Of a stretch of 36,681 nucleotides of DNA, positions 2,664 to 19,098 are shown piece by piece. The notes beneath the pieces are model-generated. The model was given only the letters and a program-made list of their open reading frames with translations. It did no database searches and had not been told where the DNA came from. The translations under genes were made by a program, and so were the position numbers. The stretch lies in the sequence record ON470583; one strand, 5' to 3'. Positions within the stretch are counted from its first letter, which is position 1. Each line of letters opens with the position of its first letter. The stretch is from Escherichia phage vB_EcoS-689R5.

Positions 2664-3659
2664 AGGTAACGGGACATCAAGTGTTGGTGAAACTTTAACC
2701 TTCCTGTCATAGATTAGCACTTGCCCTTCGGTTTTGTGACCAGAGAAAAGTTGCTTATCCCGGCTGCTTCCTTCATAGTCTGAAATTCCTTTCGCCTTCA
2801 GATCATGAAAGGTGAAGTCGGTTAAAATACCTGAAATTTTTCCAGCACGATTTCTTGCATCTACCCACATTTCGTTAAAGCCTTTGTACATATATCGGTT
2901 GCCGTATTGATTGCTGATCACATAGGCAGATTTTGGCAACTGTTTTGCTTTTTCGATCGCTGCCTGTAATCGTGGACTCCATGCTTTTATCTGTTTTTTT
3001 CCGGTTTTCCCTTGCTGGATGAATATCCCGTCGTTTCCAATCTGTTCCCATTTCAGCGATAACACATCGGAAACCCTCGCTGCACACAGATAGGCAATTT
3101 CCATTGCGATAAAAACAGGAAGAGGTGCAACGCTTAATACTGCCTGGTATTCTTTGTCGGTTACATATCGTTCGCGGTTTTTGGCCTTGAATTTACTTAC
3201 ACCTGCACATGGGTTAGCCTTCACGTACCCTCGCTCATACCCCCAACTGTAAACACGGGACATACTGCTTTTTTCATGGTTGGCTTGCGTTTTACTCTGC
3301 TCCCCTCTTTTGTCCATGTATCGACGGATGTGTTCTGGTTTTATGGAATCCGCTGGTACCTTACCGAATACGGCAAGCAACTTTTTTTGATGTTGCAGAT
3401 AATCTTTTTGTGTTCTTGGACTAAGGTCACTGTAATAGGCGCTGGCGAGGAATTTTTCCCACAAGCGACCGAATGTCATTGCACGATCGCGATTATTTAC
3501 AGTTTCCTCATACTTTTTCCATAAAGCAGCTAAACCATCCTTGATGGCGGTTAGTGTGACAGATTCTCTGGATGTTGGTTTCCATACATAACTATATTTA
3601 TTTGGGTATACATTTGGAGGTAATTTTTCGTGTTCAGGATTTTTCCTTCGTCTTCCCAT
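2634..3659 (-). CDS. Lambdoid tyrosine integrase
   Basis: 341-aa ORF adjacent to serU with an integrase-like C-terminal region (...FHDLKAKG...LFSGHKTEGQVLIYDRK) and an overlapping upstream xis-like gene. Confidence 0.88.
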   Translation of the reverse strand: MGRRRKNPEHEKLPPNVYPNKYSYVWKPTSRESVTLTAIKDGLAALWKKYEETVNNRDRAMTFGRLWEKFLASAYYSDLSPRTQKDYLQHQKKLLAVFGKVPADSIKPEHIRRYMDKRGEQSKTQANHEKSSMSRVYSWGYERGYVKANPCAGVSKFKAKNRERYVTDKEYQAVLSVAPLPVFIAMEIAYLCAARVSDVLSLKWEQIGNDGIFIQQGKTGKKQIKAWSPRLQAAIEKAKQLPKSAYVISNQYGNRYMYKGFNEMWVDARNRAGKISGILTDFTFHDLKAKGISDYEGSSRDKQLFSGHKTEGQVLIYDRKVKVSPTLDVPLPENIPRKYSK

Positions 3660-7001: not shown

Positions 7002-7059
7002 AAAAAGGGCGGCAGAGCAGTCACGGAGTAAAACTGATACCGCCAAACGTCACCAGAAA
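7002..7059 (-). ncRNA. dicF: DicF small RNA
   Basis: Reverse complement reads UUUCUGGUGACGUUUGGCGGUAUCAGUUUUACUCCGUGACUGCUCUGCCGCCCUUUUU with a terminal GC stem plus U-run, between ydfC and dicB. Exact processed ends not determinable. Confidence 0.8.
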
Positions 7060-14421: not shown

Positions 14422-14711
14422 CTGGCCTGAGGCATTTACAACGGCAGGAATCGCAATGGCTGTGGCGCTGGTGGTGTATTCGATTTGCCGCTGGGGATAA
14501 AAACGGTTTGCGGGAAAAGGAGAGTTAAGTAGAATTGCAGCGGGTGCTTGAGGCTATCTGTCTCAGGCATGAACACCAAAAGGCAGATAGAGAAAAGCCC
14601 CAGTTAACATTACGCGTCCTGCAAGACGCTTAACATTAATCTGAGGCTCAATCTATGAACGGCAAATCTAGGTTAGCCTCTTACGTGCCGAAAGGCAAGG
14701 AGAAGCAGGCT

Positions 14712-14867
14712 ATGAAGCAGCAAAAGGCGATGTTAATCGCCCTGATCGTCATCTGTTTAACCGTCATTGTGACGGCACTGGTAACGAGGAAAGACCTCTG
14801 CGAGGTACGAATCCGAACCGGCCAGACGGAGGTCGCTGTCTTCACAGCTTACGAACCTGAGGAGTAA
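14712..14867 (+). CDS. hokD: Hok/Gef-family type I toxin (51 aa, hokD/relF-like)
   Basis: MKQQKAMLIALIVICLTVIVTALVTRKDLCEVRIRTGQTEVAVFTAYEPEE; the track ORF extends in frame upstream (MNGKSRLASYVPKGKEKQA), a possible mok-like leader. No relBE is seen upstream. Confidence 0.8.
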   Translation: MKQQKAMLIALIVICLTVIVTALVTRKDLCEVRIRTGQTEVAVFTAYEPEE

Positions 14868-15699: not shown

Positions 15700-15978
15700 A
15701 TGGCGCACGATACCAAATTACACAATTCTGATGATTCTGCCGTCTTTGCCAGCAGGCACGGGCGGCGTTCCCGCACTTTCAAATCTGACTGGTTCCAGCA
15801 TGACCCATGTACTGAAGAACAGGCCGAATGGCTAATTCATAACTATCGCAGACGCGGATACGAGATTAAGAAAGCCCTCAGCCTCGATTATCGTCACTGG
15901 ATAATCTATGTCAGGCTCCCTTATTCCGAACGCCCACCGCGCCCATCCCGCACATACCAGCAACGGATCTGGAGGTAA
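15700..15978 (+). CDS. Rem-like hypothetical protein (about 92 aa)
   Basis: MAHDTKLHNSDDSAVFASRHGRRSRTFKSDWFQHDPCTEEQAEWLIHNYRRRGYEIKK...; start chosen at the first ATG clear of the upstream terminator. Confidence 0.5.
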   Translation: MAHDTKLHNSDDSAVFASRHGRRSRTFKSDWFQHDPCTEEQAEWLIHNYRRRGYEIKKALSLDYRHWIIYVRLPYSERPPRPSRTYQQRIWR

Positions 15979-15979
15979 C

Positions 15980-17035
15980 GTGCGGATATTACTTCGACCT
16001 GTTCTGGTACCGGAACTCGGGCTGGTGGTCCTTAGGCCGGGCCGTGAATCCATGCAAGTATTTCATAACCCTCGAGTGCTGGTGGAGCCTGAACCGAAAA
16101 GCATGCGCGGTCTGCCGTCCGGAGTCGTCCCTGCCGTTCGCCAGCCGCTGGCGGAGGATAAATCATTACTGCCATTTTTCAGCGATGAGCGGGTGATTCG
16201 TGCTGCTGGCGGCGCTGGGGCACTGTCTGACTGGCTGTTGCGTCATGTCAAATCCTGCCAGTGGCCTCATGGTGACTATCATCACAGTGAAATCGTCATA
16301 CATCGTTACGGTACCGGCGCGATGGTGTTGTGCTGGCACTGCGACAACCAGTTGCGTGACCAGACATCCGAATCACTCGGGCAACTTGCTCATCAAAACC
16401 TGTCAGCATGGATGATTGACGTCATACGCCATGCAATGAATGGCACGCAGGAGCGGGAATTGTCGCTGGCTGAATTATCCTGGTGGGCGGTCTGCAATCA
16501 GGTGGCGGACGCGCTTCCGGAGGCAGTATTACGTCGTTCTCTGGGGTTACGTGCGGAAAAAATCCGCTCCTTGTACCGCGAAAGCGACATCGTACCGGGA
16601 GAGCAGACCGCCACCAGCATACTGAAGCAGCGCACAAAAAATCTTGCGCCGTTGCCTCATGCCCACCAGCAAAACCCGCCACAGGAAAAGACGGTGGTCA
16701 GCATTGCCGTTGATCCGGAGTCACCGGCTCAGTATCTCCAGCGCCAGAAACCACAACGGGAAGAGATGCCTGTATACACGCGTTGGGTAAAAACGCAGAA
16801 ATGCATGACGTGCGGTAATCAGGCAGATGATCCGCATCACATCATTGGTCATGGACTGGGAGGGATGGGAACAAAGGCTGATGATTTGTTTGTTATTCCG
16901 CTGTGCCGTAAATGTCATAACGAACTGCACGCCGGGGTAAAAGATTTTGAAGAAAAACACGGCAGCCAGCTGTTGTTGCTGATTCGTTTTTTAATGCACG
17001 CGAGAAATTCGGGTGTCCTGAAGTGGAAAGCATGA
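15980..17035 (+). CDS. DUF968-family phage protein (YdfU-like) with C-terminal Cys/His motif
   Basis: GTG start after GGAGG; C-terminal CMTCGNQADDPHHIIGHGLGGMGTKADDLFVIPLCRKCHNELH. Confidence 0.65.
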   Translation: MRILLRPVLVPELGLVVLRPGRESMQVFHNPRVLVEPEPKSMRGLPSGVVPAVRQPLAEDKSLLPFFSDERVIRAAGGAGALSDWLLRHVKSCQWPHGDYHHSEIVIHRYGTGAMVLCWHCDNQLRDQTSESLGQLAHQNLSAWMIDVIRHAMNGTQERELSLAELSWWAVCNQVADALPEAVLRRSLGLRAEKIRSLYRESDIVPGEQTATSILKQRTKNLAPLPHAHQQNPPQEKTVVSIAVDPESPAQYLQRQKPQREEMPVYTRWVKTQKCMTCGNQADDPHHIIGHGLGGMGTKADDLFVIPLCRKCHNELHAGVKDFEEKHGSQLLLLIRFLMHARNSGVLKWKA

Positions 17036-17401
17036 ATGACTGAACGCATAGAATTTGTTTTGCCTTACCCGCCGACGGTGAATACCTACTGGCGACGTCA
17101 TGGCAATACGTATTTCATCTCGGAAGCCGGAAAGCGTTATCGCCGTGATGTGGCGCTAATTGTTCGCCAGCAGCGGCTGAAATTAAGCCTGTCCGGAAGG
17201 CTGGCGATAAAGATTATTGCAGAGCCACCGGATAAGCGCCGCCGCGACCTGGACAATATCCTGAAGGCACCACTGGATGCGCTGACGCATGCCGGACTAC
17301 TTATAGACGACGAGCAGTTTGATGAAATCAATATTGTGCGCGGTCAGCTCGTTCCTGGTGGGCGGCTGGGGATAAAAATCACAGAACTGGAGTGCGCATG
17401 A
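17036..17401 (+). CDS. rusA: Holliday-junction resolvase RusA
   Basis: MTERIEFVLPYPPTVNTYWRRHGNTYFISEAGKRYRRDVA...DLDNILKAPLDALTHAGLLIDDEQ. Confidence 0.85.
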   Translation: MTERIEFVLPYPPTVNTYWRRHGNTYFISEAGKRYRRDVALIVRQQRLKLSLSGRLAIKIIAEPPDKRRRDLDNILKAPLDALTHAGLLIDDEQFDEINIVRGQLVPGGRLGIKITELECA

Positions 17402-18087
17402 ATAACCAGTATTTACAGTTTGTGCGTGAGCAGCTCATTATCGCCACCGCTGATTTGAGTGGGGCAACAAAAGGTCAGCTTGAAGCCTGGCAAGAGAATG
17501 CCATGTTCGATACAGGGCGTTACAGGCGAAAAAAAATCCGGTACCGCGATGAAGTGACTGGAAAAATGATAACGCGGGATAATCCACCAATCCCGGGAAA
17601 GCAATCGCTGGCGAAGGGGACGTCAATTCCTCTGGTCAGTCCGGTTGAGTTTTCGACATCATCGTGGCGGCGGGCTGTTCTGTCTCTTGAAGAACATCAT
17701 AAAGCCTGGTTGTTGTGGTGTTACAGCGGGAGTATTTGTTGGGAATATCAGATCGCGATAACACAGTGGGCGTGGAATGAATTTAATACTCAATCCGGTA
17801 CCAGAAAAATTGCAGGGAAAACGCAGGAACGCCTGAAAAAATTAATCTGGCTGGCGGCGCAGGCAGTAAAAGCAGAACTTTTTGGTGGGGAAGGTTATGA
17901 ATACCAGGAGCTGGCATTACTGGCGGGAGTGACAACTAAAAACTGGTCCAAAACATTTACTCGTCACTGGGTTGCAATGAAACACATTTTTCACCGACTT
18001 GATAGTGAGGCTTTATTGTTTGTAATGAGAACACGTTCAAAACAAAAGGCGGCATTTTCAAAGCAAAGTGTTGCAAAAGTAGATTGA
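17398..18087 (+). CDS. Late-gene antiterminator Q family protein
   Basis: Follows rusA and precedes a promoter/short-terminator pair and the lysis genes; 230 aa. Confidence 0.7.
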   Translation: MNNQYLQFVREQLIIATADLSGATKGQLEAWQENAMFDTGRYRRKKIRYRDEVTGKMITRDNPPIPGKQSLAKGTSIPLVSPVEFSTSSWRRAVLSLEEHHKAWLLWCYSGSICWEYQIAITQWAWNEFNTQSGTRKIAGKTQERLKKLIWLAAQAVKAELFGGEGYEYQELALLAGVTTKNWSKTFTRHWVAMKHIFHRLDSEALLFVMRTRSKQKAAFSKQSVAKVD

Positions 18088-18099
18088 AAGGCATATATT
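18071..18099 (+). promoter_or_regulatory. pR'-like late promoter (TTGCAA-17 bp-TATATT), presumed Q-utilisation region
   Basis: Consensus-like hexamers overlapping the 3' end of Q, about 55 nt upstream of a strong terminator. Confidence 0.55.
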
Positions 18100-18154
18100 T
18101 CATGCAAATCTGATATTTTGCCGATTTTGTACGTGATGGCAAAAGCAAACAAAA

Positions 18155-18176
18155 CCCGCCCACAAGCGGGTTTTTT
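18155..18176 (+). terminator. tR'-like rho-independent terminator
   Basis: CCCGC-CCACAA-GCGGG hairpin followed by UUUUUU. Confidence 0.75.
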
Positions 18177-18281
18177 GTGCCACTTATCTCGGATAGACAT
18201 GGTTAATGCGTTAGTGGAGGAGATAAGGGTGATTTTTGAATGCTTGCAACATTGATTTCGTAACGTTATTATCCTGCGCTC

Positions 18282-18357
18282 GGCCCTTTAGCTCAGTGGT
18301 GAGAGCGAGCGACTCATAATCGCCAGGTCGCTGGTTCAAATCCAGCAAGGGCCACCA
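18282..18357 (+). tRNA. tRNA-Ile2-like (anticodon CAU; ileX/ileZ-type, could also read as tRNA-Met)
   Basis: GGCCCUUUAGCUCAGUGGUGAGAGCGAGCGACUCAUAAUCGCCAGGUCGCUGGUUCAAAUCCAGCAAGGGCCACCA; clean cloverleaf with CUCAUAA anticodon loop. Confidence 0.8.
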
Positions 18358-18358
18358 G

Positions 18359-18435
18359 CCGCCACTAGCTCATCAGGAAAGAGCGTCAACCCTTTAAGTT
18401 GAGTGTGCGAGGTTCGAGTCCCCGGTGGCGGTCCA
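18359..18435 (+). tRNA. Atypical tRNA-like gene (anticodon loop CCUUUAA; isotype uncertain, possibly UUU/Lys-like or a pseudo-tRNA)
   Basis: Perfect 7-bp acceptor stem (CCGCCAC/GUGGCGG), U8-A9, D arm, TUCGAGU T-loop and encoded CCA; but C at position 33 and one T-stem mismatch. Confidence 0.5.
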
Positions 18436-18437
18436 GT

Positions 18438-18513
<76 letters not shown>

Positions 18514-18516
18514 TAT

Positions 18517-18591
<75 letters not shown>

Positions 18592-18597
18592 GTTAGA

Positions 18598-18643
18598 GTC
18601 TTTCAGTCTGCGATGATGGGAAATCCCGGAGTGACTGAAAGAC
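18598..18643. repeat. Perfect 11-bp inverted repeat (gtctttcagtc / gactgaaagac) with 24-nt spacer
   Basis: Read directly from the sequence immediately 3' of the tRNA cluster. Confidence 0.8.
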
Positions 18644-18650
18644 GTTTAAG

Positions 18651-18722
18651 TTATGAATGATCGCTTTTTTTGCAAAATTGCTGTGCAGAAATACTAACCT
18701 TCGGGCAGGCGATCATTCATAA
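18651..18722. repeat. Perfect 14-bp inverted repeat (ttatgaatgatcgc / gcgatcattcataa) with 44-nt spacer
   Basis: Read directly; followed by a further 8-bp inverted repeat (agcactct / agagtgct, 18722-18774). Confidence 0.8.
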
Positions 18723-18796
18723 GCACTCTGCTTTTATTCCGATTAACTGTGGGTGGTTTGTTGGATAGAGTGCTTCCCTTACTGTATATATCGTTT

Positions 18797-18822
18797 CGCC
18801 CGCTTTTGCGGGTTTTTCTTTT
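18797..18822 (+). terminator. Rho-independent terminator-like hairpin just upstream of the holin gene
   Basis: CCCGC-UUUU-GCGGG followed by UUUUUCUUUU. Confidence 0.65.
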
Positions 18823-18882
18823 CAAATCCCTTTCATTTCTCAGTGTAAAACTACGCCATCCGTTATTTGCGGAGGTGAGGCT

Positions 18883-19098
18883 ATGAAATCCATGGACAAA
18901 ATTTCAACGGGCATTGCCTACGGCACCTCCGCAGGCAGTGCTGGCTACTGGTTTTTACAGTGGCTTGATCAGGTCAGTCCGTCACAGTGGGCTGCGATTG
19001 GTGTACTGGGGAGTCTGGTTCTGGGCTTCCTGACTTATCTGACAAATCTGTACTTCAAAATCAGAGAAGACAAGCGTAAGGCTGCACGGGGAGAGTAA
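18883..19098 (+). CDS. Pinholin (phage 21 S-type), dual-start motif
   Basis: [71 protein letters not shown]; two in-frame starts (M1, M4) and two TM segments. Confidence 0.8.

Follow-up and report, generated by a model that had tools for sequence, protein, structure and literature searches.

The record ON470583 (Escherichia phage vB_EcoS-689R5) is a stretch of DNA of 36,681 nucleotides, referred to here as the window, and represents a lambdoid E. coli prophage. Between its antiterminator gene Q and its lysis genes lie three adjacent inverted repeats, to which an earlier reading made from the letters of the window alone (the sequence-only reading) had drawn attention. Comparison of homologues indicates that these repeats very probably form an RNA structure of the + strand that is maintained by selection. 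The element is, on this comparative evidence, a three-hairpin RNA of ~185 bases with a kink-turn-like motif, and it matches no catalogued family.

The locus and its inverted repeats

The genes around the element all run rightward. Those for a DUF968 protein (15908–17035), RusA (17036–17401) and the antiterminator Q (17392–18087, Pfam PF06323) come first. Between Q and the transfer RNA (tRNA) genes there is a late-promoter candidate (18071–18099), and downstream of this promoter a tR'-like terminator, a strong and bidirectional-looking hairpin, at 18151–18177. Four tRNA genes on the + strand occupy 18282–18591 and were assigned by ARAGORN and the Rfam tRNA model as a Met/Ile2-like tRNA with anticodon CAT, Lys UUU (with a weak score), Thr UGU and Gly UCC. 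A consensus scan placed a candidate sigma-70 promoter for them on the same strand at 18244–18272. After the CCA end of tRNA-Gly come the A/U-rich, single-stranded linker GUUAGA (18592–18597, + strand), which is unpaired in the consensus fold, and then the three parts of the element, again on the + strand: the hairpin P1 (18598–18643), the three-way junction P2 (18651–18722) and the long hairpin P3 (18721–18775). P1 and P3 were defined by their inverted repeats and by covariation, P2 by its inverted repeat and the minimum-energy fold. A terminator scan found an intrinsic terminator at 18798–18822 (+ strand), and this is followed by a phage 21-type holin gene (18883–19098, Pfam PF04971) and by genes for a DUF1327 protein, lysozyme and Rz, in that order. 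The element is thus flanked by a tRNA cluster and a holin gene (ARAGORN, PF04971), as the sequence-only reading had annotated them.

A repeat search recovered the perfect 11-bp repeat (18598–18608/18633–18643, arms 24 nt apart) and the perfect 14-bp repeat (18651–18664/18709–18722, arms 44 nt apart) exactly where that reading had put them. The third, described as 8 bp at 18722–18774, is present but is a perfect 9-bp repeat at 18721–18775 (18721–18729/18767–18775). The three had also been called nested. They stand side by side instead, with the arms of P2 and P3 sharing 2 nt, and nesting is seen only for the sub-hairpins within P2 and within P3. The folding energy of the + strand RNA is −83.2 kcal/mol, compared with −58.0 ± 4.2 kcal/mol for 200 dinucleotide shuffles (z = −6.1), none of which folded as well, and the minus strand folds less well than the + strand. 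By our own estimate, the a priori chance of a perfect 14-bp repeat with a loop of up to 60 nt in 300 nt is ~7 × 10⁻⁵.

The absence of a credible open reading frame (ORF), noted from the letters, was confirmed in the relatives, in which the frames are broken on both strands. A 32-codon, TTG-started frame (18670–18768) has lost its start in 5 of 23 relatives and contains stops or frameshifts in at least 8, and a 43-codon frame on the minus strand is interrupted by stop codons in most of them. A small protein gene was ruled out, as no open frame is kept among the relatives on either strand.

Homologues and covariation

A 209-nt core of the element is present in 536 of 5,426 complete E. coli genomes, in at most three copies each and with no annotation over it. 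It also occurs in the phages PhiR47_1, phi467 and vB_EcoM-606R7. Two exact-pattern scans of viral contigs gave ~140 loci with ~80 distinct versions. The copy in phage HK639 (NC_016158) is 79% identical to that of the window, and the homology between the two spans from inside tRNA-Gly to the end of P3, with unalignable flanks on either side, a delimitation that favours a functional unit. In a scan of one genome per species, true matches were confined to Enterobacteriaceae (E. coli, Shigella flexneri, Enterobacter hormaechei, Phytobacter ursingii, Yokenella regensburgei and Citrobacter sedlakii). The carriers include the avian pathogenic strain APEC O1, the uropathogenic strain UPEC 26-1, the enteroaggregative strain EAEC 042, the enterotoxigenic strain ETEC TW10598 and Shigella flexneri; the element was not found in the enteropathogenic E. 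coli (EPEC) strain E2348/69.

Twenty-three non-redundant sequences were aligned with MAFFT (alignment A2), from which RNAalifold predicted 58 pairs; compensatory double changes are seen in 13. A2 then served to build a covariance model, which aligned 94 matches (78 distinct), and this second alignment is one fitted to the model. As a control, the pairing partners were slid (by 1–3 columns for A2) and, for the 78-sequence set, 500 shuffles were added. Standard pairs fill 97.4% of the pair cells in A2 but only 41–48% with slid partners, and the covariation score is 0.244 compared with at most 0.095. In the 78-sequence set standard pairs fill 97.8% of the cells (38–46% with slid partners), changes on both sides are seen in 30 of the 58 pairs (9–16 with slid partners) and the covariation score is 0.250 (at most 0.083 with slid partners); none of the 500 shuffles reached the observed values.

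Of the pair cells 13.8% are G·U, and the complementary strand would pair in only 84%; therefore the structure is that of a + strand RNA. The loops (AAAUUGCUG, GGGUGGUUUGUUGGAU) and the kink-turn core are invariant or nearly so while the stems covary, the fixed segments being 9–19 nt long, and this pattern points to specific contacts beyond those that stability would demand. A structured RNA had been one of several suggestions made from the letters, and it is the one that covariation and the strand-specific G·U pairs strongly support. The accompanying judgement, that palindromes of this length are unlikely by chance, is likewise upheld by the z score of −6.1, by the homologues in 536 of 5,426 genomes and by the 97.8% of pair cells that are kept.

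Structure of the three hairpins

P1 is made up of an 11-bp lower stem, a kink-turn-like internal loop, a UGGG/CCCG cap and a variable tetraloop. The internal loop has the sequence 5'-GC-GAU-GA-UGGG on one strand and 5'-CCCG-GA-GU on the other. G18610·U18632 and C18611-G18631 belong to the C-stem, GAU (18612–18614) is the bulge, and the tandem pairs G18615·A18630 and A18616·G18629 lead into UGGG/CCCG. The kink-turn consensus consists of a C-stem closed by a Watson–Crick pair, a 3-nt bulge, tandem sheared G·A/A·G pairs and then a non-canonical (NC) stem. The internal loop of P1 fits this sequence consensus in full, and a kink is predicted. Of the 64 distinct P1-bearing sequences, 50 share the P1 core GUCUGCGAUGAUGGG/CCCGGAGUGAC unchanged; all but 2 of the remaining 14 retain the tandem GA/GA, and the variants sit at tolerated positions (L1 G→A, L3 U→A, and 3b·3n as U·G, U·U or A·G). 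Helices 1 and 2, which form P1, are 97.5–98% paired, with changes on both sides in 9 of 17 pairs.

In P2 a 15-bp outer stem (18652–18666/18707–18721; helix 3) encloses two smaller hairpins. The first, P2a (18667–18674/18684–18691), carries the invariant loop AAAUUGCUG at 18675–18683, and the second, P2b (18698–18705), is CC-UUCG-GG. Helix 3 is 98.2% paired, with both sides changed in 9 of 15 pairs; helix 4 is 99.7% paired, a U-A pair being exchanged for C-G in 7 sequences. The loop and junction bases of P2 do not vary within A2.

P3 has an outer stem (18722–18730/18766–18774), an A/U-rich bulge of 7 nt (18731–18737) and an inner stem (18738–18748/18755–18765) closed by the loop GUGGGU. Its 3' strand together with the loop, GGGUGGUUUGUUGGAU (18751–18766), is G/U-rich and invariant. 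In helix 5 both sides change in 7 of 8 pairs. Helix 6 has 10 pairs: in 5 a single side varies, by A-U/G·U and C-G/U·G alternations that only the + strand can accommodate, and in 4 both sides have changed.

The tRNA operon, its promoter and its terminator

The layout around the element is that of the 3' external transcribed spacer of an operon: tRNA-Gly ends at 18591, the element extends over 18598–18775 and the terminator over 18798–18822, all on one strand. The linker before P1 reads GUUAGA, GUUUAA, GUUAAA or GUAAAA in the relatives. In 69 of 97 distinct contexts tRNA-Gly(UCC) ends 4–7 nt before the element; a few contexts have another tRNA there and the rest have none.

The promoter of the tRNA genes has the hexamers TTGCAA and TATTAT, separated by 17 nt, and a G+C-rich discriminator, with the −10 hexamer ending 9 nt before the first base of the tRNA. 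Relatives in which the cluster starts at the CAT tRNA have TTGCAA, TTGCAG or TTGCGT, a spacing of 17–18 nt, TATTAT or TATCAT, the same distance of 9 nt and, again, a G+C-rich discriminator. Hexamers, spacing and distance are thus kept though the spacers and the upstream DNA differ. A promoter score of at least 8/12 at the fixed distance was found in ~40 of 65 distinct contexts, and one of at least 9/12 in 23 of the 65, compared with 2.3% of random 70-nt windows. This conservation suggests that the promoter is active, and that the prophage tRNAs may be expressed in lysogens independently of Q. The comparative evidence supports an operon of promoter, tRNAs, element and terminator, one that would not depend on Q.

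The terminator has the stem–loop GCCCGC-TTTT-GCGGGT (stem 18798–18803/18808–18813), followed by TTTTCTTTT, so that its tail is U5-C-U4. The terminator-like hairpin of the sequence-only reading is therefore real, but it ends ~60 nt before the holin ATG (18883) and not right before it, as had been stated. Among the 25 full-length representatives with enough downstream sequence, 20 have a terminator after P3, of unrelated sequence and at a spacing of 7–22 nt counted from a P3 end mark ~10 nt past the last P3 pair. Examples are GCCCGC-UUUU-GCGGG, GCCUCGC-UUCG-GCGAGG and GGCUGCC-AUAU-GGCGGCC.

Two functional suggestions of the sequence-only reading bear on this layout. A processing site for the tRNA precursor agrees with the position of P1, 4–7 nt after CCA in 69 of 97 contexts; P2–P3, however, also occurs with no upstream tRNA, and therefore processing is not the whole story. 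Control of Q read-through is not borne out, as the element lies ~415 nt downstream of the tR'-like terminator and ~320 nt downstream of a separate tRNA promoter, and has no conserved pairing with the terminator.

The second tRNA-like gene of the cluster (18359–18435 in the window) is peculiar in that its acceptor, D and T arms are kept while its anticodon stem–loop is hypervariable among loci (L010, L013, L020, L023, L039, L089, L131 and L140 among those compared). The anticodons seen are Lys UUU, Arg UCU, Phe AAA, Leu CAG, Leu UAA and the ochre-suppressor-like UUA, besides non-canonical loops of 5–6 nt; the other three tRNAs of the cluster are constant among loci. The gene scores a weak 44 bits and was left unannotated by PGAP in strain 042. 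This could reflect either diversification of the anticodon or decay. As to tRNA-Gly(UCC), the last 32 nt of the prophage gene (18560–18591) are identical to chromosomal tRNA-Gly in 5,419 of 5,426 E. coli genomes, and several mosaic joints between phages lie within this gene.

Position and domain shuffling among loci

In all 51 loci with enough flanking DNA the element lies between the Q gene and the lysis cassette, on the same strand. Two types of Q are the most frequent, and both Q and holin vary in type. No protein partner co-occurs consistently among these neighbours, which are the usual DUF968, RusA, Q, holin, DUF1327, endolysin and Rz; HK639 is without DUF1327.

The commonest set of domains is P1–P2–P3. 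P2–P3 without P1 is found directly after CCA, or after a small ORF with no tRNA; P1–P2 without P3 is found fused to an STnc100 cassette; and some loci have P1 alone. In the variant locus L140 the junction of P2 is replaced by a plain 18-bp hairpin, and in L078 an insertion sequence (IS) element interrupts P3. The locus of Salmonella phage Fels-1 (L188) has a split, degenerate copy (1178–1341 and 1780–1932) in which P1 and a decayed P2 are followed by the ORF STM0906.1n and then by a good P2. The second part has no recognisable P3, and three copies of STnc100 flank the element.

Some neighbouring features of these loci may be recorded here. In HK639 (L001) a pseudo-tRNA-Gly at 2455–2535, which was not called by ARAGORN, has a 3' half identical to that of tRNA-Gly in the window and a diverged 5' half. 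Of the four leader terminators annotated in the same phage, two enclose an unannotated STnc100 homologue (2795–3000, 52.6 bits). In L005 (E. coli NCTC 13148; 993–1490) an ORF for an HNH endonuclease (1029–1454) has tRNA-Asn on one side and, on the other, a 3' tRNA fragment running into P1, with a 5' tRNA-like half directly before the ORF. This may be the insertion of a homing endonuclease into a tRNA gene.

Comparison with known RNAs

Searches against Rfam 15 at the gathering threshold found no family at 18592–18882. At E ≤10 the window copy gave only chance-level matches (ceN44, 15 bits; anti-hemB, 14 bits; STnc540, 13 bits), and the HK639 copy gave sub-threshold matches to istR (26 bits, threshold 45) and isrB (22.5 bits, threshold 35). 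The matches to istR, isrB and rsmX were discarded, as they align only to a generic UUCG terminator. Of the checks that had been proposed with the sequence-only reading, fold and covariation hold in the homologues; the Rfam search yielded no family.

In lambdoid prophages the stretch from Q to the lysis genes is a known source of regulatory RNAs that rewire the host (StxS, AgvB, AsxR, PasA–D and STnc100). Of these STnc100/PasD (RF02076, ~200 nt, from Salmonella and pathogenic E. coli) shares with the element its niche between Q and holin, its strand, a similar size, a multi-hairpin fold and a terminator of its own, and an STnc100 copy adjoins the element in HK639, L005 and Fels-1. There is no homology of sequence or structure, however, and the element differs in its kink-turn-like loop and its usual fusion to the 3' end of a tRNA. 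Identity with STnc100/PasD was rejected, since the RF02076 model (gathering score 47 bits) has no match in the window even at E ≤10; the same model scores 52.6–138 bits on neighbouring cassettes in HK639, L005, L075 and Fels-1, so the search works in this context.

PasD/STnc100 are prophage small RNAs (sRNAs) encoded downstream of Q, and PasD is expressed and stabilised by Hfq in EPEC; PasA and PasC are Hfq-dependent sRNAs of 84 nt encoded just upstream of the holin gene in prophages of EPEC and enterohaemorrhagic E. coli (EHEC), the two groups in which Pas sRNAs are reported to be over-represented (PMC8550237; bioRxiv 10.64898/2026.05.13.724894). PasA acquires its 5' end when a longer transcript is cleaved (bioRxiv 10.64898/2026.05.13.724894). 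The element resembles PasA and PasC in lying just upstream of a class II holin gene and in ending at a terminator, and is proposed here to be processed from a longer transcript as they are, but it is more than twice as long, far more structured and has another range of strains. The pas loci of E2348/69 were located by the coordinates in the supplement of PMC8550237. Against these loci blastn gave only chance matches (E ≥0.001, at most 36 nt), and covariance model R1 found nothing in them at E ≤1, the PasD2 locus included; identity with PasA, PasC or PasD was rejected.

Lambda 6S RNA, IsrK and StxS likewise come from the lambdoid late region, ahead of the lysis genes, and are small RNAs produced in lysogens. 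They differ from the element in running from the late promoter to the first terminator. The window has a separate candidate for such an RNA, 415 nt upstream of the element at ~18103–18177, with sub-threshold matches to isrK and isrJ (24.5 and 22.7 bits); at the equivalent position locus L179 has a full match to isrJ. The stretch 18103–18177 probably encodes a short RNA of the late leader, a counterpart of lambda 6S, IsrK and StxS.

Other parallels are to be found in tRNA operons. Like the element, 3'ETS-leuZ of the E. coli glyW-cysT-leuZ operon (ETS, external transcribed spacer) is an RNA between the last tRNA and the terminator, and it is released by tRNA maturation. It is short, at ~50 nt, and is a sponge that acts through an unstructured seed. 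In contrast, the trailer that contains the element is ~230 nt long and highly structured, and P2–P3 is also found with no tRNA. The tRNA cluster of phage T4 contains small stable RNAs (species 1 and 2, rnaC/rnaD), which are transcribed together with the tRNAs and matured from one precursor with them. T4 belongs to an unrelated group of phages, and its RNAs lie inside the cluster, unlike the terminal trailer considered here.

With the kink-turn RNAs (box C/D RNAs, ribosomal Kt-7 and the kink-turns of SAM-I, lysine and T-box leaders) the P1 loop shares the sequence consensus, though a kink-turn is a motif and not a family. The bulged strand of P1, AUGAUG, is like box C, and the other strand reads CGGA or, in 2 sequences, CUGA, which is box D itself. 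A box C/D guide RNA was nevertheless rejected: only the kink-turn part fits, with neither the terminal box C/D arrangement nor a guide region, and the snoRNA models of Rfam gave only sub-threshold matches (15 bits, E = 5). To our knowledge E. coli has no protein of the L7Ae family.

Hammerhead and other small ribozymes were rejected, since inspection by eye showed no fit to the CUGANGA/GAAA cores and no Rfam model matches. A supposed 10-nt identity between P1 and a GcvB hairpin was dropped; the Rfam GcvB model has no match. Of the features of Hfq-type sRNAs the U-tailed terminator is present, and the invariant stretches are a hairpin loop (AAAUUGCUG) or paired (GGGUGGUUUGUUGGAU). A search within the prophage for sites complementary to the invariant strands gave no more matches in the window than chance would. 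Taken together, these comparisons suggest an RNA family so far undescribed, in a niche that is already known.

Proposed mechanism and alternatives

Considered as a whole, the evidence inclines us towards a stable non-coding RNA that would be cut from the tRNA operon of the prophage, end at the terminator and act in trans. In this scheme, in which we infer promoter activity, processing, accumulation, trans function and partner alike, transcription in the lysogen would start at the conserved stable-RNA-type promoter (18244–18272), and during lytic growth polymerase modified by Q would also arrive from the late promoter. Transcription would pass through the four tRNAs and then the element and, without Q, stop at the intrinsic terminator (18798–18822), the presumed 3' end of the RNA. 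Maturation of the 3' end of tRNA-Gly would cut the A/U-rich linker (18592–18597) and release an RNA of ~230 nt; this cleavage is presumed by analogy with the established pathway of tRNA 3' maturation in E. coli. The released RNA, with its three independently folding domains, would accumulate as a stable species, and its invariant loops and kink-turn would bind a protein or another RNA in trans. The terminator would also insulate the lysis genes from the constitutive tRNA promoter. That there is a discrete, processed RNA species seems fairly probable to us. Action in trans, which we propose on the model of other sRNA cassettes between Q and holin in lambdoid prophages (STnc100/PasD, PasA/C and IsrK/StxS) and which the fixed segments may suggest, is possible but somewhat doubtful.

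Several observations weigh against this proposal. The covariation largely separates two main clades, so that there were fewer independent events than the cell counts imply. GGGUGGUUUGUUGGAU is base-paired in the predicted fold, which would be unusual for a base-pairing seed. As the domains are shuffled among loci, the three hairpins may not be one working molecule. In HK639 the tRNA promoter is missing, the first tRNA lying 8 nt after the first terminator downstream of Q, and the RNA would therefore be made there mainly in lytic growth; and in many copies of the window type the stem of the terminator is weakened. Finally, the element was not described in the literature searched by topic and by exact sequence strings, and no existing annotation mentions it.

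The main rival, which we nevertheless consider unlikely, is a purely cis-acting role with no trans product, in which the hairpins would shield the ends left by tRNA excision, or the lysis messenger RNA (mRNA), from RNase E, guide the maturation of tRNA-Gly or reinforce termination. P1 begins 4–7 nt after CCA, and P2 even closer where P1 is missing, and a 5'-terminal stem–loop is a geometry known to block the sensing of 5' ends by RNase E. The varied combinations of domains are what would be expected of interchangeable structural modules; the P2 junction is exchanged for a plain 18-bp hairpin in L140; and the element does stand between a constitutive promoter and the holin gene. Protection, however, needs only stems, yet it is the loops, the junction bases and the kink-turn core that are fixed, over stretches of 16–19 nt, while the stems vary. 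Moreover, P2–P3 also follows ORFs where there is no tRNA to excise, and the cassettes usually have their own terminator, so that without Q the RNA would not be joined to the lysis mRNA. It is much less probable that the fold is a riboswitch or attenuator which senses a ligand or a tRNA and decides the fate of transcription at 18798–18822, thereby gating expression of the lysis genes independently of Q. The order of a complex conserved fold with a kink-turn and a three-way junction, a terminator and then genes would suit such a device, and GGGUGG in the P3 loop resembles a T-box sequence, with a tRNA just upstream. The terminator is separate from the fold, however, across an unconserved spacer of 7–22 nt; in RNAduplex its 5' arm paired with its own element no better than shuffled arms did (fraction at least as good 0.05–1.0) and at inconsistent positions; and no Rfam riboswitch or T-box model matched even at E ≤10. 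Read-through from a constitutive promoter into the holin and endolysin genes would, besides, kill the lysogen. A T-box in particular was rejected, since the GGGUGG resemblance is not accompanied by a model match and the kink-turn sits atop a short hairpin and not at the base of Stem I.

Nor does the element appear to be a processive antiterminator acting in cis, like the put RNAs of HK022, which would make polymerase resist the terminators that follow; this we regard as extremely improbable. Such a role would suit an RNA of several hairpins with a promoter before it and terminators after it, and one carrier of the element is HK639, whose early operon is known for RNA-mediated antitermination. 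A gene for the Q antiterminator, however, is found at every locus examined, antitermination from the constitutive tRNA promoter would express the lysis genes in lysogens, and the terminator kept immediately downstream suggests that termination is selected. The chances are equally slight for a site that acts as DNA, whether for protein binding, for recombination or as a mosaic joint, and for inert leftover palindromes. The window copy does have perfect repeats, and the locus is a hot spot of mosaic exchange, as seen from the reshuffled domains, the IS element in P3 of L078 and the ORF that splits the Fels-1 element. A palindrome serving as a DNA site is disfavoured because each G·U becomes an A·C mismatch on the other strand and is mismatched in duplex DNA. 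With 13.8% of pair cells G·U or U·G, this tells against the protein-binding or recombination site that the sequence-only reading had included among its possibilities. The changes, too, are compensatory and do not preserve a palindrome, the stems of the HK639 type are imperfect as DNA palindromes, and the sequence is kept across genera of Enterobacteriaceae.

If the preferred reading of a processed, trans-acting RNA holds, the element would add another family to the RNAs encoded between Q and the lysis genes, one carried by about a tenth of complete E. coli genomes, among them extraintestinal, enteroaggregative and enterotoxigenic strains, and by Shigella. It would be physically coupled to a phage tRNA operon with its own stable-RNA-type promoter, and its kink-turn-like motif suggests a protein partner in a bacterium not known for L7Ae-type proteins. 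Unusually well structured and with strong covariation, it is a candidate for a new Rfam family. Should it prove only a stabiliser or insulator, it would still be a clear illustration of how a phage can keep a constitutive tRNA operon only a few hundred bases upstream of its lethal lysis genes. A bolder idea, which we think quite improbable, is that promoter, tRNAs, variable tRNA-like gene and kink-turn RNA form an RNA-only accessory operon acting on RNA-targeting systems of the host or of rival phages. The tRNA-like RNA would then serve as a decoy or replacement for anticodon nucleases and the kink-turn RNA as a protein-binding decoy or inhibitor, and the element would be a new class of phage RNA that sequesters proteins and not a base-pairing sRNA.

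Other features of the window

The Shine–Dalgarno region of the holin gene (TGCGGAGGTG) can pair with holin codons 14–17 through a perfect 10-bp inverted repeat (18868–18877/18924–18933), and the N-terminus of the holin, MKSM, is a dual-start motif. The repeat looks like the hairpin for start-site choice in the S genes of lambda and phage 21. Elsewhere in the window there are full-length Rfam matches to the antitoxin RNA sok (112 bits, 14542–14717, + strand), implying a hok/sok module, and to the sRNA DicF (77 bits, 7007–7058, − strand). Towards the left end of the window a tRNA-Asn (1425–1500, − strand) and a tRNA-Ser (2492–2581, + strand) may mark the site of prophage integration.

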